Source: a virus (taxonomy: Duplodnaviria > Heunggongvirae > Uroviricota > Caudoviricetes). From it: a stretch of 16,163 nt of DNA. Both the position numbers and the translations under genes were made by a program. Every line of letters begins with the position of its first letter. The first letter of the stretch is position 1. The stretch lies in the IMG/VR virus record IMGVR_UViG_2744054628_000001. One strand, given 5' to 3'. This document shows, in pieces, positions 45 through 16,163 of this stretch. The notes beneath the pieces are model-generated. The model ran no database searches. It saw nothing but the letters and a program-made list of their open reading frames with translations, and had not been told where the DNA came from.

Positions 45-329
45 ATGAAATCCATGGATAAGTTAACAACGGGTGTCGCCTATGGCACCTCAGCAGGTAG
101 TGCCGGGTACTGGTTTTTACAGTTGCTCGATAAAGTCACGCCCTCACAGTGGGCGGCAATAGGTGTGCTGGGTAGTCTGGTACCGGATATTCTGGAACGT
201 GACTGCGGCCTGCAGCCTGCCGCTGTGAGCCGTGTTCAGTCCATTATTGATGATCTGCGCGATCAGATAGCCCTGCGGGTGACCGAAGCAGGTGCGGATG
301 ATGAGGAGGAATTACAGCAGGAGGAGTAA
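45..329 (+). CDS. Chimeric ORF: pinholin (phage 21 S / EssD-like) N-terminus with dual-start motif MKSMDK, TMD1 and half of TMD2 (to about nt 182), fused in frame to an acidic C-terminal tail resembling a small-terminase (Nu1-like) C-terminus
   Basis: Residues 1-46 ([26 protein letters not shown]...[11 protein letters not shown]) match the S21 pinholin signature from memory; the second TM helix is then replaced by PDILERD...[27 protein letters not shown]. Stop TAA 327-329 overlaps the terminase ATG 329-331. SD GAGGTGGGG lies upstream of ATG 45. Confidence 0.55.
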
Positions 330-2431
330 TGCTGAATCAGGAAACCGCAAAGGCAGCACGAACCGATTCAGGTTATATCCTTCGCGCACCGAGACGAATG
401 CTGGTTGCTGATGCCGTTGCTCAGTATATGCGGGTGCCCATGGGGGCCGGGAATTCAGTCCCGTGGGATCCGCTGGTGGCACCGTATGTTATTGAGCCGA
501 TGAACTGCCTGGCCTCGCGTGAATACGACGCAGTGATATTTGTTGGCCCGGCACGAACTGGCAAGACTATCGGCCTGATTGACGGCTGGGTGATTTACAA
601 TGTGATTTGCGATCCTGCTGATATGCTGATCATTCAGATGACGGAGGAAAAAGCCCGCGAACACTCCAAAAAACGACTTGCCAGAACGTTTCGCGTCAGC
701 CCGGAAGTGGTCAGTCGCCTGAGTCCGAACAAAAATGACAACAACGTTTATGACAGAACATTCCTTGCTGGCAACTACCTGAAAATCGGCTGGCCGTCAG
801 TCAATATCATGTCCTCATCAGATTATAAATGCGTGGCGCTGACGGATTATGACCGTTTTCCGGAAGATATTGATGGCGAGGGGGATGCCTTCTCTCTTGC
901 CTCAAAACGTACCACCACATTTATGTCCAGTGGTATGACGCTGGTGGAGAGTTCCCCCGGCAGGGATGTGAAGGATGTGAAATGGCGACGGACTTCACCG
1001 CATGAGGCTCCACCAACCACGGGGATACTGTCGCTCTATAACCGTGGCGATCGCCGTCGCTGGTACTGGCCCTGTCCACACTGTGGTGAGTATTTTCAGC
1101 CCTGCGGCGATGTGGTTGCTGGTTTCCGTGATATTGCCGATCCCGTGCTGGCAAGTGAGGCGGCTTATATTCAGTGTCCTTCCTGTTCAGGACGGATTAT
1201 GCCTGAACAAAAACGTGAGCTGAACGGACGTGGGGTCTGGTTGCGGGATGGTGAATCCATCAATGCGGATGGCAGTCGTTATGGTGATCCCCGACGCTCA
1301 CGTATTGCGTCATTCTGGATGGAGGGTCCGGCAGCTGCTTACCAGACACTCTCGCAACTCGTTTACAAACTGCTTACTGCAGAACAGGAATACGAGACAA
1401 CCGGAAGTGAAGAAACACTCAAGACGGTTATCAATACCGACTGGGGATTACCTTATCTTCCCCGTGCCAGCATGGAGCAACGAAAAAGTGAACTGCTTGA
1501 GCAGCGGGCAGAGCCAGTTCCTTCCCGCAGTGTGCCGGATGGCGTTAATTTCCTGGTGGCGACAGTTGATGTGCAGGCGGGACGTCATCGCCGTTTTGTG
1601 GTTCAGGTAACGGGCTATGGCAGCCGTGGCGAACGCTGGATTATTGATCGTTACAACATCACGCAGTCATTGCGCGGTGACAGCGACGGGGAGAGCCAGC
1701 GAATTGATCCGGCCAGCTATCCGGAAGACTGGGATGTCCTGCTGACGGATGTTTTTCATAAAAGCTGGCCGCTGGCCTCCGATCCTTCTCAACAAATGCG
1801 ACTGATGGCAATGGCGGTGGACTCCGGCGGTGAAGACGGGGTCACTGATAATGCCTATAAATTCTGGCGTCGTTGCCGTCGTGATGGCCTTGGTAAACGT
1901 ATTTACCTGTTTAAGGGCGACAGCATCCGGCGCGCAAAACTGATCACCCGTACATTCCCTGATAACACCGGACGAACGGGCCGACGGGCGCAGGCCGCAG
2001 GTGATGTGCCGCTCTGGCTTCTTCAGACGGATGCCCTGAAAGATCGGGTGAATAACGCGTTATGGCGTGACTCTCCAGGTCCCGGCTATGTGCATTTCCC
2101 TGACTGGCTGGGGAGCTGGTTTTACGACGAACTGACGTATGAAGAGCGGAGTAGTGACGGGAAATGGAGTAAGCCGGGTCGCGGTGCCAACGAAGCTTTT
2201 GACCTGATGGTGTATGCCGAGGCTCTGGTCATTCTGCATGGATACGAAAAGATCCGCTGGCCGGATGCACCGGAGTGGGCGAGCCGGGAAACCTGGCTGG
2301 AGTGTGTCCCGGACAGCACCGAACCGTCACCCTCACCGGAACCGGTATCCACGCCTGTTAAAAAACAAAAACGGAAGAAAACAGTAACTGACGATGTTAA
2401 CCCCTGGCTGACTTCCGGAGGATGGTTATGA
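329..2431 (+). CDS. Terminase large subunit (lambda gpA-like)
   Basis: 700 aa ORF; Walker A/P-loop GPARTGKT (nt 545-568); Cys4 motif WYWPCPHCGEYFQPCGD...CPSCSG resembling the CPHCGE region of lambda gpA; AGGAGG SD 4 nt upstream of the ATG. Confidence 0.93.
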   Translation: MLNQETAKAARTDSGYILRAPRRMLVADAVAQYMRVPMGAGNSVPWDPLVAPYVIEPMNCLASREYDAVIFVGPARTGKTIGLIDGWVIYNVICDPADMLIIQMTEEKAREHSKKRLARTFRVSPEVVSRLSPNKNDNNVYDRTFLAGNYLKIGWPSVNIMSSSDYKCVALTDYDRFPEDIDGEGDAFSLASKRTTTFMSSGMTLVESSPGRDVKDVKWRRTSPHEAPPTTGILSLYNRGDRRRWYWPCPHCGEYFQPCGDVVAGFRDIADPVLASEAAYIQCPSCSGRIMPEQKRELNGRGVWLRDGESINADGSRYGDPRRSRIASFWMEGPAAAYQTLSQLVYKLLTAEQEYETTGSEETLKTVINTDWGLPYLPRASMEQRKSELLEQRAEPVPSRSVPDGVNFLVATVDVQAGRHRRFVVQVTGYGSRGERWIIDRYNITQSLRGDSDGESQRIDPASYPEDWDVLLTDVFHKSWPLASDPSQQMRLMAMAVDSGGEDGVTDNAYKFWRRCRRDGLGKRIYLFKGDSIRRAKLITRTFPDNTGRTGRRAQAAGDVPLWLLQTDALKDRVNNALWRDSPGPGYVHFPDWLGSWFYDELTYEERSSDGKWSKPGRGANEAFDLMVYAEALVILHGYEKIRWPDAPEWASRETWLECVPDSTEPSPSPEPVSTPVKKQKRKKTVTDDVNPWLTSGGWL

Positions 2432-2640
2432 ACCAGAATGATATCGAAGCCATGATTCAGCGTTATACGGAAGCTGAAATGGCGGTGCTGGACGGAAAAT
2501 CCGTCACCTTTAATGGTCAGCAGATGACAATGGAAAACTTATCTGAGATCCGGCAGGGACGGCAGGAGTGGGAGCGCCGCCTTGCGGCTCTGATTACACG
2601 ACGACGGGGGCATCCCGGGTACCGGCTGGCGAGGTTCTGA
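2428..2640 (+). CDS. W: Head-tail joining / head completion protein (gpW-like)
   Basis: About 70 aa ORF between terminase and portal, the position of lambda W; RRRG motif near the C-terminus as in gpW. GGAGG at 2417-2421 favours ATG 2428 over ATG 2422. Stop TGA 2638-2640 overlaps the portal ATG. Confidence 0.65.
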   Translation: MNQNDIEAMIQRYTEAEMAVLDGKSVTFNGQQMTMENLSEIRQGRQEWERRLAALITRRRGHPGYRLARF

Positions 2641-4109
2641 TGGCAATTCTTGATGATGTGATTGGCGTTTTTTCACCAGGATGGAAAGCGGCAAGGCTGC
2701 GTTCCCGTGCGGTGATCCAGGCTTATGAGGCCGTAAAAACGACGCGGACACACAAAGCCCGGCGGGAAAACCGAACTGCCGACCAGTTAAGCCAGTACGG
2801 GGCCGTGTCGTTACGTGAGCAGGCCCGTTACCTTGATAACAACCACGATCTGGTTATTGGTGTATTTGACAAGCTGGAAGAACGGGTGGTGGGGAAAAAC
2901 GGGATTATTGTCGAGCCACATCCGGTATTACGCAATGGGGCCATTGCCCGTGACCTGGCTGCGGAGATTCGCACCCGATGGAGTGAATGGTCTGTCAGCC
3001 CGGAAGTCACCGGGCAGTTTACCCGTCCGATGCTGGAACGTCTGATGCTGCGTACCTGGCTGCGCGATGGTGAGGTGTTTGCCCAGATGGTTTCCGGGCG
3101 CATAAACAGCCTGACGCCTTCTGCCGGTGTTCATTTCTGGCTGGAGGCGCTCGAGCCGGACTTTATTCCCATGACCAGTGATGAGAGCAACAGGCTGAAT
3201 CAGGGCGTGTTTGTTGATGACTGGGGGCGTCCCGAAAAATATCTGGTGTATAAAAGCCGTCCCGTATCCGGACGGCAGATGGAAACCAAAGAAGTGGATG
3301 CAGAGCGAATGCTGCATCTTAAATTTGTTCGCCGTCTGCACCAGATGCGCGGGACGTCTTTATTGTCCGGTGTGCTGATCCGCCTCAGTGCTCTGAAAGA
3401 GTATGAAGATTCTGAGCTGACTGCAGCAAGGATCGCCGCTGCTCTGGGGATGTACATCCGGAAAGGCGACGGGCAGAGCTATGAACCGGATGGTAATGGC
3501 AGCAAGGATAAGGAACGCGAGCTTACCATTCAGCCAGGCATTATTTACGATGATCTGAAACCCGGCGAAGAAATCGGAATGGTGAAGTCGGATCGCCCCA
3601 ATCCTAACCTTGAAACTTTTCGTAATGGTCAGTTGCGTGCCGTGGCGGCGGGCAGTCGTCTGAGTTTTTCCAGTACAGCGCGCAACTATAACGGCACTTA
3701 CAGTGCCCAGCGTCAGGAGCTGGTTGAATCCACTGATGGCTACCTGATCCTGCAGGACTGGTTTATTGGTGCCGTCACCCGTCCGATGTATCGTGCCTGG
3801 CTGAAACAGGCTGTGGCATCCGGTGTTATCAGGCTACCCCGCGATCTTGACCGTTCTTCACTGTATACCGCGGTGTATTCCGGACCGGTGATGCCGTGGA
3901 TTGACCCTGTTAAGGAGGCTGAGGCCTGGAAAATCCAGATTCGTGGTGGAGCGGCGACAGAATCAGACTGGGTACGTGCTGGTGGTCGTAATCCGGATGA
4001 TGTCAAACGTCGGCGCAAGGCCGAAATTGATGAAAACCGCAAACTGGATCTGGTATTTGATACCGATCCGGCCAGTGATAAAGGAGGCAGCAGTGCCGCA
4101 ACGAAATGA
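2640..4109 (+). CDS. Portal protein
   Basis: 489 aa ORF directly after terminase and W, start ATG 2640 overlapping the W stop (TGATG). Size and position are typical of a portal; I cannot align it to lambda gpB from memory, so the family assignment is by synteny. Confidence 0.85.
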   Translation: MAILDDVIGVFSPGWKAARLRSRAVIQAYEAVKTTRTHKARRENRTADQLSQYGAVSLREQARYLDNNHDLVIGVFDKLEERVVGKNGIIVEPHPVLRNGAIARDLAAEIRTRWSEWSVSPEVTGQFTRPMLERLMLRTWLRDGEVFAQMVSGRINSLTPSAGVHFWLEALEPDFIPMTSDESNRLNQGVFVDDWGRPEKYLVYKSRPVSGRQMETKEVDAERMLHLKFVRRLHQMRGTSLLSGVLIRLSALKEYEDSELTAARIAAALGMYIRKGDGQSYEPDGNGSKDKERELTIQPGIIYDDLKPGEEIGMVKSDRPNPNLETFRNGQLRAVAAGSRLSFSSTARNYNGTYSAQRQELVESTDGYLILQDWFIGAVTRPMYRAWLKQAVASGVIRLPRDLDRSSLYTAVYSGPVMPWIDPVKEAEAWKIQIRGGAATESDWVRAGGRNPDDVKRRRKAEIDENRKLDLVFDTDPASDKGGSSAATK

Positions 4110-6120
4110 CAGGAGCCGCAGCACACCGACGACCAGTCCGAAGAATAATTCCTGGTTCAGGATGCAGGCTGGTCACCAGAGTGACGCGGATATTTATATT
4201 TATGACGAGATTGGTTTCTGGGGTGTTACAGCGAAGCAGTTTATCAGTGATCTGAATGCACTGGGCGATATCACCCACATTAATCTCCATATTAATTCAC
4301 CGGGTGGCGATGTCTTTGAAGGCATCGCCATTTTTAATGCGCTGAAAACACATGGTGCGTCCATTACCGTTTATGTCGACGGTGTGGCGGCGTCAATGGC
4401 GTCGGTCATTGCGATGGTGGGAACCCCGGTCATTATGCCGGAAAACACCTTCATGATGATTCATAAACCATTTGGCTTTACGGGCGGTGATGCGGAGGAC
4501 ATGCGCACCTATGCCGACCTGCTCGATAAAGTTGAGGCGGTTCTGTTACCCGCTTATGCACAGAAAACCGGGAAAACCACCGATGAAATTGCTGCCATGC
4601 TGGCGGATGAGACCTGGATGTCCGGTGCCGAATGTCTGGCACATGGATTTGCTGATCAGGTAACGCCAGCCGTTAAGGCAATGGCATGTATTCAGTCAAA
4701 ACGTACAGAGGAATTTAAAAAGATGCCGGAATCCATTCGAAACATGATTACTCCGCCACGCAACAGTGCTCCACGCGTACAGGATGATGAACCTGCAGCC
4801 TCCCGGACGCCAGTGCAGGCAGCAGCACCCGTGGTGGATGAAAACAGTATCCGTGCGCAGGTACTGGCAGAGCAAAAAGCGCGTGTAAACGGTATTAATG
4901 ATCTGTTTGCCATGTTTGGCGGGCGTTATCAGACGCTGCAGGCCCAGTGTCTTGCCGATCCTGAATGTTCGCTGGAGCAGGCCCGCGAAAAGTTGTTGAA
5001 CGAGATGGGGCGCGAGTCCACGCCATCCAATAAAAATACCCCGGCTCATATTTATGCCGGTAACGGTAATTTTGTGGGGGACGGGATCCGCCAGGCGCTG
5101 ATGGCGCGTGCCGGATTTGAAAAAACCGAACGTGATAATGTCTACAACGGGATGACCCTGCGTGAATATGCCCGTATGTCACTGACTGAACGGGGTATTG
5201 GGGTTTCCGGTTATAACCCGATGCAGATGGTCGGTGCGGCGTTCACACACAGTACGTCTGACTTCGGTAATATTCTGCTGGATGTTGCGAACAAAGCCAT
5301 TCTGCAGGGCTGGGAAGATGCCCCTGAAACCTATGAACAGTGGACGCGGAAAGGTCAGTTGTCTGATTTTAAAATTGCCCATCGTGTGGGTATGGGGGGC
5401 TTCAGTGCTCTGCGTCAGGTGCGTGAAGGGGCGGAATATAAATACGTCACCACCGGAGATAAACAGGCCACTATTGCACTGGCGACCTATGGCGAGCTGT
5501 TCAGTATCACCCGTCAGGCCATTATCAATGATGATCTGAATATGCTGACCGATGTCCCGATGAAGCTGGGCCGTGCGGCGAAATCCACTATTGCCGATCT
5601 GGTTTATGCCATTCTGACGTCTAACCCGAAAATCTCCACAGATAATGTAAGTCTGTTCGATAAAGCGAAACATGCAAACGTACTGGAGAGCGCTGCAATG
5701 GACGTGGCATCGCTGGATAAAGCCCGCCAGTTGATGCGCGTTCAGAAAGAGGGGGAGCGTCATCTGAATATTCGTCCTGCGTTCGTACTGGTACCGACGG
5801 CGATGGAGTCTGTTGCTAACCAGGTCATTCGCTCCTCAAGTGTCAAGGGGGCTGACATTAACGCCGGTATTATTAACCCGGTGAAAGATTTTGCGACCGT
5901 TATTGCAGAGCCTCGTCTTGATGATAACAGCCAGACCACCTTCTACCTGGCTGCGTCAAAAGGCTCCGATACGATTGAAGTGGCTTATCTCAACGGTGTG
6001 GATACGCCATATATTGATCAGATGGAGGGCTTCAGTGTGGATGGCGTGACAACGAAAGTGCGTATTGACGCCGGTGTCGCGCCAGTTGATCACCGCGGTC
6101 TGGTGAAATGTACGGCGTAA
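4093..6120 (+). CDS. Prohead protease (ClpP/S14-like) - linker/scaffold - major capsid protein fusion
   Basis: N-terminal ClpP-like domain with candidate catalytic Ser (GVAASMASV) and His (MMIHKPFG); long C-terminal domain in the major capsid position. Start GTG 4093 chosen for the AAGGAGG SD at 4081-4087 (5 nt spacer); alternative ATG at 4162. The in-frame ORF upstream to 3901 overlaps the portal and is rejected. Confidence 0.8.
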   Translation: MPQRNDRSRSTPTTSPKNNSWFRMQAGHQSDADIYIYDEIGFWGVTAKQFISDLNALGDITHINLHINSPGGDVFEGIAIFNALKTHGASITVYVDGVAASMASVIAMVGTPVIMPENTFMMIHKPFGFTGGDAEDMRTYADLLDKVEAVLLPAYAQKTGKTTDEIAAMLADETWMSGAECLAHGFADQVTPAVKAMACIQSKRTEEFKKMPESIRNMITPPRNSAPRVQDDEPAASRTPVQAAAPVVDENSIRAQVLAEQKARVNGINDLFAMFGGRYQTLQAQCLADPECSLEQAREKLLNEMGRESTPSNKNTPAHIYAGNGNFVGDGIRQALMARAGFEKTERDNVYNGMTLREYARMSLTERGIGVSGYNPMQMVGAAFTHSTSDFGNILLDVANKAILQGWEDAPETYEQWTRKGQLSDFKIAHRVGMGGFSALRQVREGAEYKYVTTGDKQATIALATYGELFSITRQAIINDDLNMLTDVPMKLGRAAKSTIADLVYAILTSNPKISTDNVSLFDKAKHANVLESAAMDVASLDKARQLMRVQKEGERHLNIRPAFVLVPTAMESVANQVIRSSSVKGADINAGIINPVKDFATVIAEPRLDDNSQTTFYLAASKGSDTIEVAYLNGVDTPYIDQMEGFSVDGVTTKVRIDAGVAPVDHRGLVKCTA

Positions 6121-6143
6121 ACGTCGCAGACAACAACTCTGAT

Positions 6144-6163
6144 GGCCCGTAAGGGCTTTTTTT
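6144..6163 (+). terminator. Intrinsic terminator-like hairpin after the capsid gene
   Basis: GGCCC-GTAA-GGGC stem-loop (6144-6156) followed by T7 (6157-6163), 24 nt after the capsid stop TAA 6118-6120. Confidence 0.55.
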
Positions 6164-6206
6164 GTACCTGAAATCAGCCCCTGAACGGGGCTGTGCGGAG
6201 ACAGTT

Positions 6207-6530
6207 ATGGCAAAGAATTTTGTAGAAGAAGGAAAAACGGTGGCGATTGTTGCCAGTGCAGCCATCAGCAGCGGAGATCTGGTGCAGGTGGGTGATGTTT
6301 TTGCGGTGGCGCTGACCGATATTCCACAGGGTGAAACAGGCGACGGCATGACCGAAGGTGTGTTTATGCTGTCTAAGCTGAAAACGGATGACATGAAAAC
6401 GGGTAAGAAGGTTTATCTGAAGTCCGGAAAAGTTCAGCTGACTAACAGCGGCTCTGATCCGCTGGTCGGGGTTGTCTGGGCAGATGCCGGAACCAGTGCA
6501 GAAGAAGTGCCGGTAAAACTCAATGTCTGA
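6207..6530 (+). CDS. DUF2190-family phage head protein (possible decoration/cement protein)
   Basis: 107 aa; begins MAKNFVEEGKTV..., which I recognise as the DUF2190 family pattern; GGAG at 6197-6200 with a 6 nt spacer to ATG 6207. The track ORF start at 6162 lacks an SD. Confidence 0.6.
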   Translation: MAKNFVEEGKTVAIVASAAISSGDLVQVGDVFAVALTDIPQGETGDGMTEGVFMLSKLKTDDMKTGKKVYLKSGKVQLTNSGSDPLVGVVWADAGTSAEEVPVKLNV

Positions 6531-6693
6531 TCCCTTTTCCCGGCTGGCAGCGCGTATGGATGCGATCACGGTCAGAAAGATGGGAAAGACAGCCTCGATT
6601 AATGATGCCGATATGACTGTGATCCCGGGAGAAACACTGGCAGAGCTGAATGCTCTGTCCGGACCTGCGGTCTCTCTGGTGGTGTTTTCTTCG
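6523..6693 (+). pseudogene. FII: Head-tail attachment protein gpFII-like, N-terminal fragment (about 57 codons) ending at the inversion breakpoint
   Basis: ATG 6523 overlaps the DUF2190 stop (ATGTCTGA). MSDPFSRLAARMDAI...GPAVSLVVFS resembles the lambda FII N-terminus (MADFDNLFDAAIARAD...SPSLFV). Past about nt 6690 the frame reads antisense through the inverted H fragment. Confidence 0.5.
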
Positions 6694-6900
6694 GGATGCG
6701 GCTGTTGCAGCCGAAGAAGCCGCCTGCATTGTCTGCCGGGCGGCCTGAGTCTGACGCTCCATAAAACGCTGCATACGGGCAGAAGACCGTTCTGCATCGC
6801 TGGCTGCACCATTCAGAAGGTTTTTGATACGGGGAATTTCATTTTTAAACTCTGCCGCATCAATCCCCAAATCAATGACCAGGTTGGCTATCTGGTCCAT
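6694..6900 (-). pseudogene. H: Tail tape measure protein gpH-like, N-terminal fragment (about 69 codons), inverted relative to the rest of H
   Basis: Minus-strand ATG at 6900 with SD GGAGGTG and a 6 nt spacer; MDQIANLVIDLGIDAAEFKNE...SDAERSS... resembles the lambda H N-terminus (..GDLVVDLSLDAARFDEQ...SDAKK..). It lies directly downstream of the T-frame stop, as H does in lambda. Confidence 0.6.
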
Positions 6901-7222
6901 AACGCACACCTCCGGAAATACCTTCCCCAAGATGCATCAGTTCTTCGTCCGTTCGCTCCGGTATCCCGTTCTCTTCCGGTAAAAGGCTGAAATCAGCCAC
7001 CGCAGCATCACTGCTGCCGGACACCATTCTCACGATCAATGCCTTCAGCGAGGCAAACTGCGCATCCATCCACACATCACTGAAGCTCTGCATCCGGAAA
7101 TAATCGCCCCATTCACCAAGCTCAGTGGCCGACATTTCCGACAGCATCCGCCGCCAGTCTGCCCGCCGGAACTCCCGGGCAAGCCGCATGACAAACTGCA
7201 TTTCCCGTGTCAGGACTTTTCC
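6872..7222 (-). CDS. T: gpT-like -1 frame extension of the tail assembly chaperone (made as a G-T fusion by programmed frameshift); no independent start expected
   Basis: Open -1 frame relative to G, running from the end of G to the stop at 6872-6874; position between G and H as in lambda. Confidence 0.7.
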   Translation of the reverse strand, partial: GKVLTREMQFVMRLAREFRRADWRRMLSEMSATELGEWGDYFRMQSFSDVWMDAQFASLKALIVRMVSGSSDAAVADFSLLPEENGIPERTDEELMHLGEGISGGVRYGPDSQPGH

Positions 7223-7596
7223 GGCGTCAGCACCTCATGCTCCAAATCCCCGGCATTCTCAATGGCTCCCATACCGCTCAGCGACAGAACCATCTCCGCC
7301 CCCGCTCCCAGGGCATCATACGACCATGTTGTAATAACGGATGCGCAAAGCGTCTCAACATCCTGAGACTGTTCCGCATTCCACAGTGAGCGGGAAACCA
7401 GCCAGGCATTGATATCCATCCCCATCCGCAGAAAAGCAATCTGTCGTTCAGCCTCCGGCAGTTCTCCCTCTTCGGCATCAAACTTTGCCGTTCGCTGCTG
7501 AACAAACGCCAGATATTCAATTCTCTGCAGCCCGGACAGCTCACTGAGCACCACGGACTGCTTTTCATAATTAAACGAGCCCTGTTTCAGAAACAT
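7210..7596 (-). CDS. G: Tail assembly chaperone gpG
   Basis: MFLKQGSFNYEKQSVVLSELSGLQRIEYLA resembles lambda G (MFLKTESFEH..TLSELSALQRIEHLA); SD GGTGGAG upstream with a 6 nt spacer (alternative ATG 7599). Confidence 0.85.
   Translation of the reverse strand: MFLKQGSFNYEKQSVVLSELSGLQRIEYLAFVQQRTAKFDAEEGELPEAERQIAFLRMGMDINAWLVSRSLWNAEQSQDVETLCASVITTWSYDALGAGAEMVLSLSGMGAIENAGDLEHEVLTPEKS
7216..7222 (-). promoter_or_regulatory. Candidate -1 programmed ribosomal frameshift site (G GAA AAG on the minus strand) for G-T fusion synthesis
   Basis: Heptamer GGAAAAG in the 0 frame of G, 4 codons before the G stop and inside the short overlap where the T frame is open; analogous to the lambda G-T site G GGA AAG. 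Confidence 0.45.
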
Positions 7597-7612
7597 CATG
7601 TTCTCCACCTGC

Positions 7613-7636
7613 AAAAAAGCCCCGGATAACCGGGGC
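7613..7636 (-). terminator. Intrinsic terminator on the minus strand between V and G
   Basis: On the minus strand: GCCCCGG-TTAT-CCGGGGC, a perfect 7 bp GC stem, followed by T6, between the V stop (7657-7659) and the G start. Confidence 0.7.
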
Positions 7637-7656
7637 AAATGATGAGTATCGTCCTG

Positions 7657-8400
7657 TTAACCTGCGGCGCTGACAGCCACCGCAGCCACGGCCACAAAAT
7701 CGCCGTCAGAAGTCATGCCCACAATGCTGACACTGCCCTGCTTCACGCCTTTCACCGTGGCCACAAGCCCGTTCAGGGTCACCGTGGCAGTCTGTGGATC
7801 TGTCGAATGCACACTGATCGCTTTGTCACTGGCTCCGTCAGGTTTTACTGTAAAGGTCAGCGTGGTGGTTGCTCCCACTTTTACACTGGCAGATGCCGGT
7901 GCCACCGTCAGCCCGGTAACGCTCACTGTTTCAGTGCCTTCCTCTGCCAGATACGGACGCCCCACACCGCTGATTTTCACTGTGCGGGTCATCACGTCTT
8001 TTGAGGCAATGGTTTTACCCAGTGAGCTCAGCCAGCCACGGAAAACATCAACAGTGCCGTTGGGATATTTGATACGAAACGCGCAGACTTCACCGGAGTC
8101 GAACAACTGAACCAGTTTTTTCTGCCCGCTGTCACCCGGACGCCAGGCCAGCGTCGCCGAAGTATCACCGACGGATTTCTGCCCCTGGGTTGTCGTTTTC
8201 CAGTCTGCATCTTCATCATCGAGATAAGTGTCATCTTCTGCATCAGCGGTCATTTCGCCAGGTTGCAGATCCTTCACCATCGCAAGACGCAGCCAGTCAG
8301 TGTCCGATAAAGGGTTCGCAAACGCATCGCCCTTGCCGGTGTACATCCAGAACGTCGTTCCCGCACCTTTCGTTTTTGCCAGTGGATTTGGTGTGGTCAT
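7657..8400 (-). CDS. V: Major tail protein gpV with C-terminal Ig-like (Big_2-type) domain
   Basis: MTTPNPLAKTKGAGTTFWMY...YLDDEDADW...NGTVDVFRGW resembles lambda V ([20 protein letters not shown]...YLDDEDADW...NGTVDVFRGW). AGGAGG SD 5 nt upstream of ATG 8400; the track start at 8406 is a GTG abutting the SD. Confidence 0.92.
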   Translation of the reverse strand: MTTPNPLAKTKGAGTTFWMYTGKGDAFANPLSDTDWLRLAMVKDLQPGEMTADAEDDTYLDDEDADWKTTTQGQKSVGDTSATLAWRPGDSGQKKLVQLFDSGEVCAFRIKYPNGTVDVFRGWLSSLGKTIASKDVMTRTVKISGVGRPYLAEEGTETVSVTGLTVAPASASVKVGATTTLTFTVKPDGASDKAISVHSTDPQTATVTLNGLVATVKGVKQGSVSIVGMTSDGDFVAVAAVAVSAAG

Positions 8401-8411
8401 TGCCACCTCCT

Positions 8412-8813
8412 TTAATTCGTGTACGTGATCTGGTACGTGATTTCCGCCATCGCCCAGGTGGCCATCTCATTATCACGTTGATAGTTAAAACCGAGAGGGA
8501 TCAGGGTGTCGATGAGTCCGGAAAGTGCCGGTATATCATTCAGAGCCGGGAAAATGGTGCTCTCCATCCACATATCCAGCTCTGAATCCGGTGCCTGTGC
8601 CCGGATGAAGACAGCAATATGCAGAACAGCCTGCCAGTCATCTTCATCCGTCATTTTTCCGGTGTACTGAGCATCACTCAGCCACACCGCCACGGCAGGC
8701 AGTTCCTGCGCATCAATAAATGCCGGAAGCCCGTCAAAAAACGTGGCGCTGTCTCCACACTGTTCCCGAAGGCGTGCCAGTACGGCCTGGCGGATTTGTG
8801 TATGTCGGTTCAT
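8412..8813 (-). CDS. U: Tail terminator protein gpU
   Basis: ...ATFFDGLPAFIDAQELPAVAVWLSDAQYTG...PDSELDMWMES...IPALS resembles lambda U (..ATFFDGRPAVFDEADFPAVAVYLTGAEYTG..PDSELDAWMES..IPALS). Start taken as the ATG overlapping the Z stop (ATGA); alternative ATG at 8825. Confidence 0.85.
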   Translation of the reverse strand: MNRHTQIRQAVLARLREQCGDSATFFDGLPAFIDAQELPAVAVWLSDAQYTGKMTDEDDWQAVLHIAVFIRAQAPDSELDMWMESTIFPALNDIPALSGLIDTLIPLGFNYQRDNEMATWAMAEITYQITYTN

Positions 8814-9388
8814 CGGGTCAGCCATAACCTCAGTTGTTGTTTCAGTGCATACCCCAGCTGTTTCGGCATTTCCGCAGCAATAATACGGTCGCGGGCATCT
8901 TCAAATGCCTGTGTCAGCGGTCCGGACAGCGGGACTTTCACCACATCAATGGGGTAACGATTTTTGCCATCAATACGCCGCATCACATGCCAGCGACCAT
9001 TCGCCAGTTGCTGAATAAACGCATCCCGGAAAAGATATTTACCCACCTTCAGCACACTGCCACGGTACTGCAGTTTTCCACCACGCCGGGCCAGTCTGAC
9101 CCGGGCTGTCCCCAGCTTAATAGCGGGCAGATTGCCCCGGTTAACGCGGATCCTGGCCGTCATTTTTCCTGACGGACTGGCTTTAAACATCCGGACACGC
9201 TGACGTACCAGTTTCAGGGGGATCCCTTTCACCTGGTTATCTCCCGCAACGGTATTCCCGGCAACCTGCCGGGTGGCGACCGAGACCGCTTTCTGTGCCA
9301 CACGGTTTATCGCCCATGCGCTGGCCTGTGGCACCATACGGGTATCAAGGCTGTTCAGATTACGGATGGCATTCTCAAGCCCCTTCAT
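8810..9388 (-). CDS. Z: Minor tail protein gpZ
   Basis: 192 aa; ...NGRWHVMRRIDGKNRYPIDVVKVP...LGYALKQQLR resembles lambda Z (..NGRWHVMQRVAGKNRYPIDVVKIP..LGYALQHQLR); SD AAGAGGTG upstream of ATG 9388. Confidence 0.9.
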   Translation of the reverse strand: MKGLENAIRNLNSLDTRMVPQASAWAINRVAQKAVSVATRQVAGNTVAGDNQVKGIPLKLVRQRVRMFKASPSGKMTARIRVNRGNLPAIKLGTARVRLARRGGKLQYRGSVLKVGKYLFRDAFIQQLANGRWHVMRRIDGKNRYPIDVVKVPLSGPLTQAFEDARDRIIAAEMPKQLGYALKQQLRLWLTR

Positions 9389-9399
9389 CCCACACCTCT

Positions 9400-9513
9400 T
9401 TACTCAATAAAGATCATTGGCTTACCGTTAAAACGTTCATGCCGTGTGACCGTCCATTGTTGTCCGTCATAAACAACGCGATCCCCGCGCCGTGGGCGGT
9501 ATCCGTCCATGCG
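9400..9513 (-). pseudogene. FII: gpFII-like C-terminal fragment (about 37 codons plus stop), immediately upstream of Z on the minus strand
   Basis: Minus-strand frame reads ...RMDGYRPRRGDRVVYDGQQWTVTRHERFNGKPMIFIE-stop, resembling the lambda FII C-terminal region (..RQLRRGDTLTIGEENFWVDRV..). Its stop TAA (9400-9402) overlaps the Z SD, the native FII-Z arrangement. No start codon or N-terminus on this strand. Confidence 0.5.
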
Positions 9514-12363
9514 CAGACGGTGGAGAAGAGCGCACAGGCTCATGAACGCATGGCCCGCGAGGTGGAGCAAACCCGCCAGCGTATGGAGGCACTGAGCCAG
9601 AAAATGCGCGAGGAACAGGCGCAGGCCATGGCTCTGGCGGAGGCTCAGGATAAAGCGGCTGCCGCGTTTTATCGTCAGATTGACAGTGTGAAACAGGCCA
9701 GTGCGGGACTGCAGGAATTACAGCGTATTCAGCAGCAGATCCGACAGGCCAGAAACAGTGGCGGGATTGGTCAGCAGGATTATCTGGCGCTGATTTCTGA
9801 GGTTACGGCGAAAACCGGTGTTCTTACGCAGGCTGAGGCAGAGGCTACCCGACAGAAAGTGGCGTTTATCCGTCAGCTTAAAGAGCAGGCAACCCGCCAG
9901 AATCTTTCTTCTTCTGAGTTGCTTCGTGCTAAGGCTGCCCAGCTGGGGGTAAGCAGTGCTGCAGAAGTGTATATCCGCAAAATGGAGCAGGCAGGAAAAG
10001 CCACGCATTCGCTGGGTCTGAAAAGTGCAGCGGCCCGCCAGGAGATAGGCGTTCTGATAGGTGAACTGGCCCGCGGCAATTTAGGTGCGCTGAGGGGATC
10101 CGGGATAACGCTGGCTAACCGTGCCGGATGGATAGACACACTGATGTCACCGAAAGGCATGATGCTGGGCGGGGTTATTGGCGGTATTGCCGCGGCCGTC
10201 TATGGTCTGGGTAAAGCCTGGTATGATGGTCAGAAGGAGGGGGAAGAATTTAACCGCCAGTTGTCGCTGACGGGGCATTATGCCGGAGTCACTGCCGGGC
10301 AGCTGTGGACGCTCAGTCGTGCTATTTCCGGGAATGGTATTACGCAACATGCTGCAGCCGGTGCGCTGGCTCAGGTGGTGGGGAGTGGTGCATTTCGTGG
10401 AAACGATATCGGTATGGTGGCGAGAGCTGCCGCACAGATGGAGCGATCGGTTGGCCAGTCGGTCAGCGATACCATAAATCAGTTTAAGCGGCTGAAGGAT
10501 GATCCTGTAAATGCCGCGAAGGCTCTGGACAATGAGCTGCATTTTCTTACTGCCACTCAGCTTGAGCAGATACGCGTCCTTGGGGAACAGGGGCGGTCCA
10601 GTGATGCGGCACGGATAGCCATGTCTGCACTGGCAGAGGAAACCGGTCGGCGTACTGCGGATATTGATAATAACCTCAATGCGCTGGGCAGTACGCTGAA
10701 GTATCTGTCTGATTTATGGAGTCGTTTCTGGGATGCGGCCATGAATATTGGTCGTGAAGACTCGCTGGATGAACAGATTTCCGCTTTACAGGAGAAAGTG
10801 TCGCGGGCGAAAAGACTCCCCTGGACGGCATCATCTTCTCAGGTTGAATACGATCAGCAGCGTCTTAACGAGCTTCAGGAGAAAAAACGCCAGAAGGATT
10901 TGCAGGATGCAAAAGAGCAGGCAGAGCGGAATTATCAGGAGCAACAGAAACGCCGTAATGCTGAAAATGCTGCACTGAACCGGATGAATGAAACGGAAGC
11001 AGCACGACATCAGCGTGAAATTGCGCGTATTAATTCCATGCAGTACGCCGATCAGGCTGTCAGGGATGCGGCGATACAACGTGAAAATGAACGTTACGAG
11101 AAAGCCCTGGCATCCGGTAAGAAAAAAACACGCGAACCCCGTAATGATGAGGCCACCCGGTTATTGCTGCAGTACAGTCAGCAACAGGCACAGGTGGAAG
11201 GACAGATTGCTGCTGCCAGACAGTCAGCAGGCATTGCCACGGAAAGGATGACAGAAGCGCATAAACAGCTTCTGGCTCTGCAGCAGCGCATCAGCGACCT
11301 GGACGGGAAAAAACTGACGGCAGATGAAAAGAGTGTGCTGGCCCGTAAAGATGAACTGATTCAGGCACTGACGCTGCTGGATGTAAAACAGCAGGAGCTT
11401 CAGAAACAGACGGCACTCAACGAGCTGAAGAAAAAAACAATTCAGCTGACCAGTCAACTGGCTGAAGAAGAGCGCGCTCAGCGTCAGCAACATGACCTGG
11501 ATATCGCCACGGTGGGTATGGGTGATCAGCAGCGGCAGCGATATCAGGTACAACTGAGTCTTCGCCAGAAATACCAGCAACAGCTGGAGCAGTTGAGGCG
11601 GGATAGTGAGCAGAAAGGAACATATAACACGGATGACTACAGAAAGGCCGAGCAGGCGCTGACGGAGAGCCTGAACCGACAACTGAATGAGAATCGCCGT
11701 TACTGGCAACAGCTTGAAGTTGTGCAGGGTAACTGGAAAAACGGAGTCCTGCGTGCATTTCAGGATTTTACCGTGGATGCAGATAATACGGCAGGAACAG
11801 CAGAACAGGTGTTCTCGTCAGCCTTCAGCAACATGGGAAATGGCCTGGCAACTTTTGTCACTACCGGCAAACTCAATTTCAAATCCTTCACCTCTTCTGT
11901 GCTGTCAGATATGGCGAAAATCCTGGCGCAGGCAACCATGATGAAATCGATAAAAGGGATTGGCAGTGTACTGGGATTTGATCTCAGCAGCCTTTCCCTG
12001 AATGCCAATGGGGGGATTTATCAGTCTGCTGATTTGAGTCGTTACAGTGGCACGGTGGTTAACCGTCCGACGTTTTTTGCTTTTGCAAAAGGCGCGGGTG
12101 TGATGGGGGAAGCGGGACCTGAAGCCATTCTGCCACTGCGTCGTGGTGCTGACGGTAAGCTGGGGGTTGTGGCGGATATTGGTGGTTCAGGTATGGCGAT
12201 GTTTGCCCCGCAGTACAACATCGAGATCAATAACGATGGCACGAACGGGCAGATAGGTCCGGCTGCCCTGAAGGTGGTTTATGACCTCGGGAAAAAAGCG
12301 GCAGCGGACTTTATGCAACAGCAGGCCCGTGATGGTGGTCGGTTAAGTGGAGCATATCGGTAA
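9514..12363 (+). pseudogene. H: Tail tape measure protein gpH-like, body and C-terminus (about 950 codons), separated from its N-terminus by the inversion
   Basis: Coiled-coil-rich ORF with a C-terminus resembling lambda H (...VINNDGTNGQIGPAALK.VYD......RDGG). The first 73 codons of the six-frame ORF (from 9295) are antisense to Z and FII and carry no SD. Stop TAA overlaps the M start (TAATG). Confidence 0.75.
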
Positions 12364-12692
12364 TGGAGACGTTTCACTGGAAAGTGCGCCCGGATATGAA
12401 TGTGGTATCAGAGCCGAAAGTGGTGACAGTGAAGCTGGGCGATGGTTATGAACAGCGTCGTGCGGCGGGACTGAATAACCAGTTGTCGACTTACAGCGTG
12501 ACGATACGTGTTCGTAAATGTGAACACCCATCTTTAAAAGCCTTTCTGGAACGGCACGGTGGCGTCCGCGCATTTCAGTGGACGCCACCTTATGACTGGA
12601 AGCCGATCAGGGTGGTTTGTCGTAAATGGTCGGCAAGCGTGGGGGCGCTGTGGATAACCATAACGGCAGATTTTGAACAGGTCGTGGCATAG
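12363..12692 (+). CDS. M: Minor tail protein gpM
   Basis: 109 aa, the same length as lambda M and similar along its whole length (METFHWKVRPDMNVVS... vs lambda MKTFRWKVKPGMDVAS...). Confidence 0.95.
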   Translation: METFHWKVRPDMNVVSEPKVVTVKLGDGYEQRRAAGLNNQLSTYSVTIRVRKCEHPSLKAFLERHGGVRAFQWTPPYDWKPIRVVCRKWSASVGALWITITADFEQVVA

Positions 12693-12701
12693 GAGGCTCT
12701 G

Positions 12702-13400
12702 ATGCAGGATATTCCACAGGAAACACATCATGAGACGACATGCCTCACTCAGTCAGCCCAAGTGGTGCTCTGGGAAATCGATCTGACAGAGGTCGGTGGT
12801 GAACGTTATTTTTTCTGTAATGAGCAGAACGAAAAAGGTGAGCCGGTTACCTGGCAGGGGCGGCAGTATCAGGCATACCCCATTCAGGGGACGGGATTTG
12901 AACTGAATGGCAAGGGCAGTGCTGCCCGTCCGACACTGACGGTTTCTAACCTGCACGGCATGGTCACCGGGATGGCGGAAGACCTGCAGAGTCTGGTCGG
13001 CGGAACGGTGGTCCGGCGTAAGGTTTACGCCCGTTTTCTGGATGCGGTGAACTTCGTCAACGGAAACAGTGACGCCGATCCGGAGCAGGAGGTGATCAGC
13101 CGCTGGCGCATCGAGCAGTGCAGCGAACTGAGCGCGGTGAGTGCCTCTTTTGTACTGTCCACGCCGACGGAAACGGACGGTGCCGTTTTTCCGGGACGTA
13201 TCATGCTGGCCAACACCTGCACCTGGACCTATCGCGGTGACGAGTGCGGTTATCACGGTCCGGCGGTCGCGGATGAATATGATCAGCCGACGTCCGATAT
13301 CACGAAGGATAAATGCAGCAAATGCCTGAGCGGCTGTAAGTTTCGCAATAACGTCGGCAACTTTGGCGGCTTCCTTTCCATTAACAAACTTTCGCAGTGA
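12702..13400 (+). CDS. L: Minor tail protein gpL
   Basis: 232 aa, very close to lambda L as I remember it (MQDI.QET...VVLWEIDLTEVGGERYFFCNEQNEKGEPVTWQGRQYQ...); AGGAGG SD 5 nt upstream of the ATG. Confidence 0.95.
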   Translation: MQDIPQETHHETTCLTQSAQVVLWEIDLTEVGGERYFFCNEQNEKGEPVTWQGRQYQAYPIQGTGFELNGKGSAARPTLTVSNLHGMVTGMAEDLQSLVGGTVVRRKVYARFLDAVNFVNGNSDADPEQEVISRWRIEQCSELSAVSASFVLSTPTETDGAVFPGRIMLANTCTWTYRGDECGYHGPAVADEYDQPTSDITKDKCSKCLSGCKFRNNVGNFGGFLSINKLSQ

Positions 13401-13405
13401 ATCCC

Positions 13406-14149
13406 ATGACAGAGACAGAATCAGCGATTCTGGCGCACGCCCGGCGATGTGCGCCAGCGGAGTCGTGCGGCTTCGTGGTGAGAACACCGGAGGGAGAAAG
13501 ATATTTTCCCTGCGTGAATATATCTGGTGAGCCGGAGGCGTATTTCCGGATGTCGCCGGAGGACTGGCTGAGTGCAGAAATGCAGGGAGAGATTGTGGCG
13601 CTGGTCCACAGCCACCCCGGTGGTCTGCCCTGGCTGAGTGAGGCCGACCGGCGGCTGCAGGTGCAGAGTGATTTGCCGTGGTGGCTGGTCTGCCGGGGGG
13701 CGATTCATAAATTCCGCTGTGTGCCGCATCTCACCGGGCGGCGCTTTGAGCACGGGGTGACGGACTGTTACACGCTGTTCCGGGACGCTTACCATCTGGC
13801 GGGAATTGAGATGCCGGATTTTCATCGCGGGGATGACTGGTGGCGTCACGGCCAGAATCTCTATCTTGACAATATGGAGGCAACGGGTTTTTACCGTGTC
13901 CCACTGACAGAGGCGCAGCCTGGCGACGTGCTGCTGTGCTGTTTTGGTTCATCGGTGCCGAATCATGCCGCCATTTACTGTGGCGACGGCGAGCTGCTGC
14001 ACCATATTCCTGAACAACTGAGTAAACGAGAGAGGTACACCGACAAATGGCAGCGACGCACACACTCCCTCTGGCGTCACCGGGCATGGCACGCATCTGC
14101 CTTTACGGGGATTTGCAACGATTTGGTCGCCGTATCGACCTTCGTGTGA
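13406..14149 (+). CDS. K: Tail assembly protein gpK (JAMM/MPN plus NlpC/P60 two-domain protein)
   Basis: Starts MTETESAILAHARR...; JAMM motif HSHPGGLPWLSEAD (H-x-H-x7-S-x2-D); NlpC/P60-like Cys (VTDCYTLF) and His (PNHAAIYCG). Track start GTG 13397 is an alternative. Confidence 0.93.
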   Translation: MTETESAILAHARRCAPAESCGFVVRTPEGERYFPCVNISGEPEAYFRMSPEDWLSAEMQGEIVALVHSHPGGLPWLSEADRRLQVQSDLPWWLVCRGAIHKFRCVPHLTGRRFEHGVTDCYTLFRDAYHLAGIEMPDFHRGDDWWRHGQNLYLDNMEATGFYRVPLTEAQPGDVLLCCFGSSVPNHAAIYCGDGELLHHIPEQLSKRERYTDKWQRRTHSLWRHRAWHASAFTGICNDLVAVSTFV

Positions 14150-14694
14150 AAACGGGGGCTGAAGCCATCCGGGCACTGGCCACACAGCTCCCGGTGTTTC
14201 GTCAGAAACTGAATGAGGGCTGGTATCAGGTGCGCATTGCCGGGCGTGATGCAGGCGAAAATGAATTATCTGCCCGTCTTAATGAGCCGCTGGCAAATGG
14301 TGCCGTGATCCACATCGTGCCGCGTCTGGCGGGAGCTAAAAGTGGCGGTGTGTTTCAGGTGGTGCTTGGGGCGGCGCTGATTGCGGTGGCATGGTGGAAC
14401 CCTGTGGGCTGGCTGGGGGCCGCGGCTGTATCGGGCATGTATGCGGCAGGGGCCAGTATGATCCTGGGCGGAGTGGCGCAGATGCTGGCACCGAAAGCCA
14501 GGACGCCCACGGCAGCCAGTACAGATAACGGCAAACAGAACACCTATTTCTCCTCACTGGATAACATGGTTGCCCAGGGCAATGTTCTGCCTGTTCTGTA
14601 CGGTGAAATGCGTGTGGGGTCGCGGGTGGTTTCTCAGGAGATCAGCACGGCAGACGAAGGGGACGGTGGTCAGGTTGTGGTGATTGGTCGCTGA
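14047..14694 (+). CDS. I: Tail assembly protein gpI
   Basis: MAATHTLPLASPGMARICLYGDLQRFGRR... and the C-terminus ...NVLPVLYGEMRVGSRVVSQEISTADEGDGGQVVVIGR match lambda I as I remember it; the 5' end overlaps K in another frame. Confidence 0.9.
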   Translation: MAATHTLPLASPGMARICLYGDLQRFGRRIDLRVKTGAEAIRALATQLPVFRQKLNEGWYQVRIAGRDAGENELSARLNEPLANGAVIHIVPRLAGAKSGGVFQVVLGAALIAVAWWNPVGWLGAAAVSGMYAAGASMILGGVAQMLAPKARTPTAASTDNGKQNTYFSSLDNMVAQGNVLPVLYGEMRVGSRVVSQEISTADEGDGGQVVVIGR

Positions 14695-14712
14695 TGCAAA
14701 ATGTTTTATGTG

Positions 14713-14740
14713 AAACCGCCTCCGGGCGGTTTTGTCGTTT
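14713..14740 (+). terminator. Stem-loop with U-rich tail between I and J (possible attenuator or terminator)
   Basis: AAACCGCC-TCCG-GGCGGTTT, a perfect 8 bp stem (14713-14732), followed by TGTCGTTT; lies between the I stop (14692-14694) and the J start (14755). Confidence 0.4.
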
Positions 14741-14754
14741 ATGGAGCATGACGA

Positions 14755-16163
14755 ATGGGTAAAGGCAGCAGTAAGGGGCATACCCCGCGCGAAGCGAAGG
14801 ATAACCTGAAATCCACGCAGCTGCTGAGTGTGATCGATGCCATCAGCGAAGGGCCGATTGAAGGTCCGGTGGATGGATTAAAAAGCGTGCTGCTGAACAG
14901 TACACCGGTGCTGGACAGTGAGGGGAATACCAACATCTCCGGTGTCACGGTGGTGTTCCGGGCAGGTGAGCAAGAGCAGACACCGCCGGAGGGATTTGAA
15001 TCCTCCGGTTCCGAGACGGTGCTGGGTACGGAAGTGAAATACGACACGCCGATCACCCGGACCATCACGTCTGCAAACATCGACCGTCTGCGCTTTACCT
15101 TCGGTGTGCAGGCACTGGTGGAAACCACCTCAAAGGGGGACCGGAATCCGTCGGAAGTCCGCCTGCTGGTTCAGATCCAGCGTAATGGTGGCTGGGTGAC
15201 GGAAAAAGACATCACCATTAAGGGCAAAACCACCTCGCAGTATCTGGCCTCGGTGGTGGTGGGTAACCTGCCGCCGCGCCCGTTCAATATACGGATGCGC
15301 AGGATGACGCCGGACAGCACCACAGACCAGCTGCAGAACAAAACGCTCTGGTCGTCATACACCGAAATCATCGATGTGAAACAGTGCTACCCGAACACGG
15401 CACTGGTCGGCGTGCAGGTGGATTCGGAGCAGTTCGGCAGCCAGCAGGTGAGCCGTAATTATCATCTGCGCGGGCGCATTCTGCAGGTGCCGTCGAACTA
15501 TAACCCGCAGACGCGGCAATACAGCGGTATCTGGGACGGAACGTTTAAGCCAGCATACAGCAACAACATGGCCTGGTGTCTGTGGGATATGCTGACCCAT
15601 CCGCGCTACGGCATGGGGAAACGTCTTGGTGCGGCGGATGTGGACAAATGGGCGCTGTATGTCATCGGCCAGCATTGCGATCAGTCGGTGCCGGACGGTT
15701 TTGGCGGCACGGAGCCGCGCATCACCTGTAATGCGTACCTGACCACACAGCGCAAGGCGTGGGATGTGCTCAGTGATTTCTGCTCTGCGATGCGCTGTAT
15801 GCCGGTATGGAACGGGCAGACGCTGACGTTCGTGCAGGACCGACCGTCGGATAAGGTGTGGACCTATAACCGCAGTAATGTGGTGATGCCGGATGATGGT
15901 GCGCCGTTCCGCTACAGCTTCAGTGCCCTGAAGGACCGCCATAATGCCGTTGAGGTGAACTGGATTGACCCGAATAACGGCTGGGAGACGGCGACAGAGC
16001 TTGTGGAGGACACGCAGGCCATTGCCCGTTACGGTCGTAACGTCACGAAGATGGATGCTTTTGGCTGTACCAGCCGGGGGCAGGCACACCGCACCGGGCT
16101 GTGGCTGATTAAAACAGAACTGCTGGAAACGCAGACCGTGGACTTCAGCGTGGGTGCCGAAGG
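14755..16163 (+). CDS. J: Tail tip / host specificity protein gpJ, N-terminal about 469 codons (runs off the window end)
   Basis: Open frame from ATG 14755 to the window end (absent from the ORF track because it has no stop). Translation MGKGSSKGHTPREAKDNLKSTQLLSVIDAISEGPIEGPVDGLKSV... matches lambda J as I remember it; GGAG 8 nt upstream. Confidence 0.93.
   Translation, partial: MGKGSSKGHTPREAKDNLKSTQLLSVIDAISEGPIEGPVDGLKSVLLNSTPVLDSEGNTNISGVTVVFRAGEQEQTPPEGFESSGSETVLGTEVKYDTPITRTITSANIDRLRFTFGVQALVETTSKGDRNPSEVRLLVQIQRNGGWVTEKDITIKGKTTSQYLASVVVGNLPPRPFNIRMRRMTPDSTTDQLQNKTLWSSYTEIIDVKQCYPNTALVGVQVDSEQFGSQQVSRNYHLRGRILQVPSNYNPQTRQYSGIWDGTFKPAYSNNMAWCLWDMLTHPRYGMGKRLGAADVDKWALYVIGQHCDQSVPDGFGGTEPRITCNAYLTTQRKAWDVLSDFCSAMRCMPVWNGQTLTFVQDRPSDKVWTYNRSNVVMPDDGAPFRYSFSALKDRHNAVEVNWIDPNNGWETATELVEDTQAIARYGRNVTKMDAFGCTSRGQAHRTGLWLIKTELLETQTVDFSVGAE

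Follow-up and report, generated by a model that had tools for sequence, protein, structure and literature searches.

How does a lambdoid prophage come to encode, directly upstream of its large terminase gene, a protein that begins as a holin and ends as a small terminase? The window, that is the whole stretch of DNA analysed here, is the entire 16,163-bp contig LSBS01000332.1 of the draft assembly GCA_001641955.1, whose source strain, E. coli 3c112, is a multidrug-resistant ST10 isolate from human faeces in Hanoi (PMC8698711). It harbors on the + strand, at positions 45-329, an open reading frame of 94 codons with the dual start MKSMDK, whose stop codon (TAA, 327-329) overlaps the ATG of terL (329-331) in a TAATG, leaving terL translationally abutted to it.

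When the 94-residue product is compared with Pfam, residues 5-47 match positions 1-43 of the 64 in PF04971 ('Bacteriophage P21 holin S') with an E-value of 1.8e-20 and a score of 73 bits against a cut-off of 26, and residues 44-80 match positions 110-146 of the 147 in DUF1441 with an E-value of 1.3e-5. The latter score, 25.6 bits against a cut-off of 35.1, lies under the gathering threshold because the fusion retains the tail of this family alone. The PHROGs profiles assign residues 1-46 to holin families and residues 45-94 to the 'terminase small subunit' phrog_141 (positions 127-176 of 183, E-value 2.5e-18), and at the level of these profiles the tail is to be regarded as a fragment of a DUF1441/PHROG 141 member, not as a member itself. 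The chimera is real in the given sequence, far beyond chance. The initial annotation had recognized the phage 21 pinholin signature in residues 1-46, which is borne out by the PF04971 match, the PHROG holin assignment and the identity to EssD. It had also described a second transmembrane domain (TMD2) cut short and replaced by an acidic tail that overlaps the terL start, and a hydropathy scan gives the same picture: residues 7-28 are uncharged, Gly/Ala/Ser-rich and identical to EssD, the second uncharged stretch, which covers residues 31-58 in EssD, is reduced to 31-47, and the 48-residue tail, which begins with Pro-Asp after this stretch, carries 14 Asp or Glu versus 4 Lys or Arg. In agreement with a further remark of the same annotation, the open reading frames include no endolysin, spanin or full terS between the fusion and terL, which is the next gene.

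The reference used to interpret this arrangement is the intact prophage of E. coli H8 (NZ_CP010172.1, about 55-90 kb), whose coordinates are given here as L001. Its genes follow in this order:

L001 3666-3881, essD
L001 3881-4378, rrrD, endolysin
L001 4375-4842, Rz-type 'lysis protein' (spanin)
L001 4830-4982, 50-aa open reading frame, followed by a 676-bp gap
L001 5658-6149, DUF1441 terS
L001 6149-8251, terL

BLAST against this prophage divides the window into four blocks, namely 1-182 (100% identical), 181-6697 (100% identical at an offset of 2,199 bp), 6694-9504 (100% identical and inverted) and 9501-16163 (99.64% identical). The features around the fusion are:

1-44, + strand, leader that carries GAGGTG (Shine-Dalgarno-like) at 34-39 and matches the H8 prophage at 100% identity
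45-182, + strand, 5' part of essD, codons 1-46 (PF04971, PHROG holin families, 100% identity to H8 essD)
181-182, + strand, deletion junction relative to H8, the TA dinucleotide of both parental sites, where the BLAST blocks overlap by 2 nt
183-329, + strand, 3' part of terS, codons 116-163 plus stop (phrog_141, DUF1441, 100% identity to H8 WP_000349509.1)
329-2431, + strand, intact terL, 700-aa GpA-type protein with GpA ATPase and nuclease (Pfam PF05876 and PF20454, RefSeq annotation of the identical H8 gene)

The essD part runs from the M1/M4 dual start through the SAR-type TMD1 and the loop between the helices and ends 11 residues into TMD2 (W36-V46), and the contig itself starts just past a terminator-like hairpin that precedes essD in H8. 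The DNA missing between the first two blocks is L001 3804-6002 (equivalently 3802-6000), which amounts to 2,199 bp or 733 codons, in frame. The parental sites read CTGGTA/TTTGG in essD and ACATTA/CCGGAT in terS (slashes mark the breakpoints here and below), with TA alone common to both, and essD codon 46 (GTA, window 180-182) is joined to terS codon 116. What is missing comprises the remainder of essD, rrrD, Rz, the small open reading frame, the putative cos and terS codons 1-115 including the helix-turn-helix (HTH) and the central region. An in-frame deletion joining S to the small terminase gene, with removal of the lysis genes, probably of cos and of the terminase DNA-recognition domain, had been proposed from the window alone, and the H8 interval contains each of these elements. 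The proposed division into 45-182 and 183-329 was likewise right for the two halves, the correction being that the junction is placed at 181-182/183, with codon 46 at 180-182.

All 24 differences from H8 are found at window positions 15673-16158, in gene J, and the other 15.6 kb show no substitutions, which in a comparison of sequences marks the deletion as recent. A chimera of two prophage copies was considered and ruled out, given that the 24 mismatches all fall in the last 500 bp, distant from the junctions. The cluster of differences in J could mark a mosaic boundary, or it could stem from the J allele of another prophage having been collapsed into the contig end.

Screening of 5,426 complete E. 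coli genomes with megablast yielded hundreds of near-perfect matches to the window, all starting at base 181, and the fusion junction in none of them. The fusion protein (P0001) has one member on one contig, and among 5.8 billion protein clusters it is the only protein with both domains; a known family matching it over its full length, which the initial annotation had named as a possible outcome, is absent from this set. The other outcome it had named, functional phages with the same gene upstream of terL, is not what the relatives show either: in mEp460, PhiR47_1, PhiR55_1 and vB_EcoS-569R4, terL is preceded by a complete terS and by the lysis cassette, and mEp460_4F5 and the H8 prophage also follow the order holin, endolysin, spanin, cos, terS, terL.

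Concerning the terminase half, the full-length H8 DUF1441 protein matches phrog_141 with an E-value of 2.7e-77 and phrog_57 with 8e-9, and lambda Nu1 matches the same two profiles in reverse order (phrog_57, 1e-76; phrog_141, 5.6e-8). These reciprocal matches indicate that the DUF1441 and Nu1 families are remote homologues at the profile level. Placing the fusion tail in a small terminase of Nu1 type is supported. BLASTP gives no alignment between the H8 DUF1441 protein and Nu1, and against PDB sequences the former finds insignificant HTH matches only. With hhalign, DUF1441 residues 9-54 align weakly (E-value 0.02) with Nu1 residues 2-49, that is with the N-terminal HTH only, and Pfam places a weak HTH match at residues 11-40 of the intact H8 TerS, a region deleted in the fusion. 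The earlier claim that the tail resembles the C-terminus of Nu1, for which BLASTP returned nothing, is unsupported; the remote homology to Nu1 sits in the deleted N-terminal HTH.

The position of cos was approached through the record of mEp460_4F5 (LR595868.1), whose two ends abut at L001 5466/5467 in a GC-rich patch containing GGGCGGGAGCGT. A GGGCGG cosN-like motif adjoins this point, and the terS ATG is located 189 nt downstream of it; lambda has cosN at bp 1 and its nu1 ATG at bp 191 (PMC9026076). With this lambda-like geometry, the putative cos is inside the deleted interval wherever it is placed within the GC-rich patch. Lambda cosN itself, GGGCGGCGACCT, was not found with up to 3 mismatches in the gap upstream of terS in H8, and the putative cosN GGGCGGGAGCGT (L001 5440-5490) differs from it at 4 of 12 positions. 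The start of LR595868.1 lies 5 nt left of GGGCGGGAGCGT. The end of the mEp460 RefSeq record was rejected as evidence on cos, that record starting at the terS ATG.

The deletion is accompanied by a second rearrangement, which affects the following features:

6694-9504, - strand, reciprocal 2,811-bp inversion (BLAST against H8 at 100%, junction sequences, strands of the called genes)
6523-6990, + strand, head-tail gene of the PF13856 Gifsy-2 family ('DNA breaking-rejoining protein'), broken after codon 58 (H8 coordinates, open reading frames, translation)
9501-12363, + strand, tape-measure gene without its first ~68 codons, called at 911 aa (H8 annotation and mapping)

The inversion is base-perfect and lies between the inverted tetranucleotides GGAT/ATCC at 6694-6697 and 9501-9504 (here the slash separates the two repeats). 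T, G, V, U and Z thereby end up on the wrong strand, together with the initial ~207 nt of the tape-measure gene; the PF13856 gene reads past the left junction into inverted DNA, and the missing tape-measure start is found inverted at 6900-6694. Both inversion junctions are absent from the 5,426 complete genomes. The initial annotation had seen the deletion; the 2.8-kb inversion and the status of the contig as a singleton of a draft assembly had gone unnoticed.

The reading that we favour, with a probability of roughly three in four, is that an illegitimate and recent deletion in an mEp460/Gifsy-2-type lambdoid prophage of 3c112 left the open reading frame as a scar. In this event, 2,199 bp would have been lost between two TA dinucleotides, bringing essD codon 46 in frame with terS codon 116, and the microhomology at the junction (2 nt here, 2-4 nt at the sister events described below) points to microhomology-mediated end joining or template switching as a candidate route. 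The in-frame join is most simply explained by chance, with a probability of 1/3, rather than by design. The deletion in the window is itself probably real.

As to what the scar would still do, its transcription would rely on the Q-dependent late promoter alone, and both this promoter and Q are off the contig because the contig begins 44 bp upstream of the ATG. The fusion keeps the SAR-like TMD1 and only 11 residues of TMD2, and would be expected to form no holes. In S21, pores require TMD2 and can be formed by it alone, and truncations from the C-terminus are not tolerated beyond about K56 in the 68-aa numbering (bioRxiv 10.1101/2021.04.20.440580); the fusion is cut at residue 43 of the same numbering, short of this limit, and hence should not form pinholes. 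TerS of lambda binds DNA through an N-terminal winged HTH, oligomerises through a central domain and binds TerL through a C-terminal segment of ~40 residues (PMC9026076). The acidic tail occupies the position of this TerL-binding end and, by analogy of position with the lambda protein and without sequence likeness to the Nu1 tail, the retained segment may still bind TerL, whereas recognition of cos would be impossible once the DNA-binding and oligomerisation parts are lost and, to judge from the deleted interval, cos itself is gone. Having suffered both the deletion and the inversion, the prophage could presumably neither lyse the cell, nor package DNA, nor build tails, and the fusion is most likely an inert by-product.

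Two points weigh against this explanation. The junction is located 182 bp from the end of a contig in a short-read draft and occurs in no other genome, and two rare rearrangements within 9.5 kb without any point change are unusual for slow natural decay. In an alternative, the fusion would be a library or assembly artefact, chimeric reads having joined the first 180 bp to the terS/terL contig and the inversion being likewise spurious, and the genome would hold an intact prophage. The contig is indeed a singleton of a fragmented assembly with the junction near its end, the three junctions are absent from the 5,426 complete genomes, and an intact prophage matches the flanks at 100% identity. An overlap of 2-4 nt is, however, far too short for a misjoin by a de Bruijn or overlap assembler, which implies that actual reads crossed the junction; independent chimeras would not yield an inversion whose two ends, as here, are reciprocal base for base; and the same essD breakpoint is found mid-contig elsewhere, in unrelated assemblies. 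We consider an artefact unlikely.

The last of these observations derives from a search with the 94-aa protein, which yielded many EssD N-termini joined to unrelated tails. Rightward deletions starting at CTGGTA/ (V46), the site used in the window, lead into rrrD (L132; 6 contigs carry the same protein, and three places in three assemblies were compared), into lambda A at about nt 2058 (L136), into a protease/capsid gene (L011) and into tail-fibre DNA of a DLP12-like locus on a 202-kb contig (L010). Those starting at CTGGGTA/ (G43) lead into tail or J genes (L137, L138, L139-141) and, in the complete genome CP050220.1 (L135), into other DNA. The same breakpoint lies mid-contig in unrelated assemblies, including contigs of 202 and 404 kb, the essD alleles at the sister loci being 92-97% identical to H8 where measured. 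Junction microhomologies at the sister loci, where measured, are TA, GGTA, GGTA, TA and TAT, compared with 2 nt in the window, and many of the sister deletions at the same essD site are out of frame. Further EssD variants carry tails that we take to be IS2-like (P0013, P0023, P0042, P0075, P0077) or IS1-like (P0021, P0046, P0070, P0104). These IS-like tails sit at different essD positions, and essD is apparently a frequent target of insertions as well as of deletions.

A second in-frame fusion, EssD(1-10)-'TerS (P0002), was found in the Logan assembly of ERR2348886 (L009 10001-10315), with different breakpoints, at essD codon 10 and about codon 70 of terS, in an allele about 98.8% identical to H8. 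The protein search could detect in-frame terS fusions only, and this second case is thus ascertainment-biased. The prophage concerned also lacks the tail genes U to M, with Z directly followed by L; this second lesion maps to about 17335-17373 (contig 194). Its left breakpoint, GCTGGGGTAT/, resembles the essD sites. At one of the V46 loci (L136 7946-12249, GCA_019367435.1), a block with integrase, AlpA, Bro-N and D5 primase is located inside the portal gene of a lambda-like prophage; helper-embedded satellites of this kind have been described (PMC10111431), the likeness being one of appearance.

It is the recurrence of these sites that raises the question of a specific mechanism. The breakpoints correspond to window 170-182 (essD nt 126-138) and follow the GGTA copies in GCTGGGTA/GTCTGGTA/ (loci L010, L011, L132 and L135-L141). 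In the first list of matches, which under-samples earlier essD positions, 13 distinct fusions occur after residue 43 and 11 after residue 46, as compared with 2-4 at residues 42, 44 and 45 and at most 3 anywhere in 47-71; some of these clusters represent one event with different downstream frameshifts, so that roughly 9-10 events per site remain. In a second search, with EssD residues 1-40, which returned proteins of at most 70 aa only, each position between residues 15 and 42 had about 1-3 breakpoints, with 4 at position 43 and 3 at position 46. In a scan of IMG/VR, V46 had no continuation other than the wild-type one and G43 had 4 matches, equivalent to 2 events, and of two control patterns one gave allelic variants only and the other 115 stretches, which presumably represent a common TTTGGCATG allele. 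All of 120 randomly retrieved essD copies were intact. Taken together, breakpoints at the two sites exceed those at upstream positions by about 2-3 fold and those at downstream positions by about 10 fold, a clustering that is suggestive.

Several candidate causes of the fixed breakpoint were examined and rejected. DNA hairpins at the breakpoints have z-scores of -0.9 to +0.15, downstream microhomology is not in excess (the essD sites rank 64th and 106th of 156 positions), and Chi-limited RecBCD resection from cos meets its first active Chi at L001 3583, about 213 bp beyond the endpoint. Nor did a comparison by eye of the breakpoints with IS1 ends, invertase crossover sites and restriction sites give anything convincing. 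The breakpoint is also left unexplained by the integration sites of HE-PICI satellites (PMC10111431).

The alternative that builds on these data is that the deletion and the inversion were made by an enzyme rather than by random slippage, either a quinolone-stabilised gyrase, through 4-bp staggered cuts with subunit exchange, or terminase, through a cos cut in the unexcised prophage followed by RecBCD resection and end joining. The inversion has a 4-bp overlap and is both conservative and reciprocal, the deletion spans cos, the strain is multidrug-resistant, and the clustering after GGTA at two essD positions elsewhere is accounted for neither by an excess of microhomology nor by hairpins. On the other side, no enzyme site has been demonstrated, the first active Chi lies so far beyond the left endpoint that Chi-limited resection does not predict it, and the clustering falls to the lower of the two values given above when compared like for like. 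The sites match the classical gyrase consensus only in part. A further point in favour is that the prophage is Chi-rich, with its Chi sites co-oriented, and that RecBCD entry is predicted from the side of cos where the lysis genes lie (PMC12315714). All in all, an enzymatic origin is improbable. Equally doubtful is its more specific form, in which essD codons 41-46, GCTGGGTA/GTCTGGTA/, would be a sequence-specific hotspot for possibly enzyme-made rightward deletions that ground prophages, and the TA deletion and the 4-bp inversion would stem from one recombination burst, for instance a topoisomerase-II-type exchange or the processing of a cos cut in an abortive induction.

Regarding Chi in general, GCTGGTGG and its one-mismatch variants are over-represented in L001 1-14320, the counterpart of the window plus the upstream part that it lacks, with 28 occurrences versus 12.6 expected, a count reached by 0 of 200 shuffles. 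Nearly all of the sites point the same way as the late genes, 10 of the 11 exact ones being on the + strand. The H8 prophage fits the class of 'high-Chi lambdoid phage' (PMC12315714).

It remains to consider a function for the fusion. S21 forms with a membrane-retained TMD1 act as antiholins. A selected functional protein, be it a TMD1-bearing dominant-negative antiholin shielding a polylysogen against S21-type holins or a TerL-binding decoy that disturbs the packaging of related phages, could on this basis be argued from the in-frame join that keeps the terL translational overlap, from the second in-frame EssD'-'TerS fusion and, by analogy, from a tail at the TerL-binding position of lambda-type TerS (PMC9026076), but it is very improbable, as a single member among 15 billion proteins gives no sign of spread or conservation, in-frame joins are expected once in three and come with out-of-frame sister deletions and a search bias, and expression would need late transcription of an otherwise dead prophage.

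Returning to the recent illegitimate deletion as the preferred reading, the case can be set beside known systems. Residues 1-46 are identical to H8 EssD, a phage 21 S/EssD pinholin (PF04971, class II holin), including the dual start, the Gly/Ala/Ser-rich TMD1 and the loop; unlike EssD, the fusion lacks the C-terminal 25 residues with the second half of TMD2 and the cationic tail, and no SAR endolysin gene follows. Judged by its sequence, it cannot be filed as a functional pinholin. Residues 47-94 are the last 48 of the H8 DUF1441/PHROG 141 TerS, of the mEp460 and Gifsy-2 types and remotely related to Nu1 (PHROG 57), with the same overlap of the stop with the terL start, whereas residues 1-115 with the HTH are absent. 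The H8 prophage, PhiR47_1, PhiR55_1, mEp460 and mEp460_4F5 agree with the contig in how the late genes are ordered and in having a head module with fused protease/capsid, but in them essD, rrrD, Rz, cos and terS are all present and the tail genes are oriented normally. P0002 resembles the window in that the same two genes are fused in frame with loss of the lysis genes, cos and the 5' end of terS, and differs in breakpoints and allele.

Remnants of the DLP12, Rac and Qin types are likewise disabled by internal deletions and rearrangements of late genes, and in DLP12-like loci of other strains essD is cut at the same nucleotides as in the window. Compared with them, the lesion in the window is very young and combines a deletion with a clean inversion. 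The prophage of the contig is hence a private new example of the known grounding of lambdoid prophages by internal deletion, its less ordinary features being its youth, the reciprocal inversion with a 4-bp overlap and the apparent recurrence of the essD breakpoint.

On its own the fusion matters little, and prophage decay is ordinary. What the case offers is a clean and datable conversion of a functional lambdoid prophage to a locked-in remnant by one or two illegitimate recombinations, and an illustration of how such scars yield plausible-looking 'hypothetical proteins' with two unrelated domains. If it is true that independent deletions that disable prophages prefer the same two GGTA positions in the holin gene, this would be a pointer to a specific mutational mechanism in prophage domestication.
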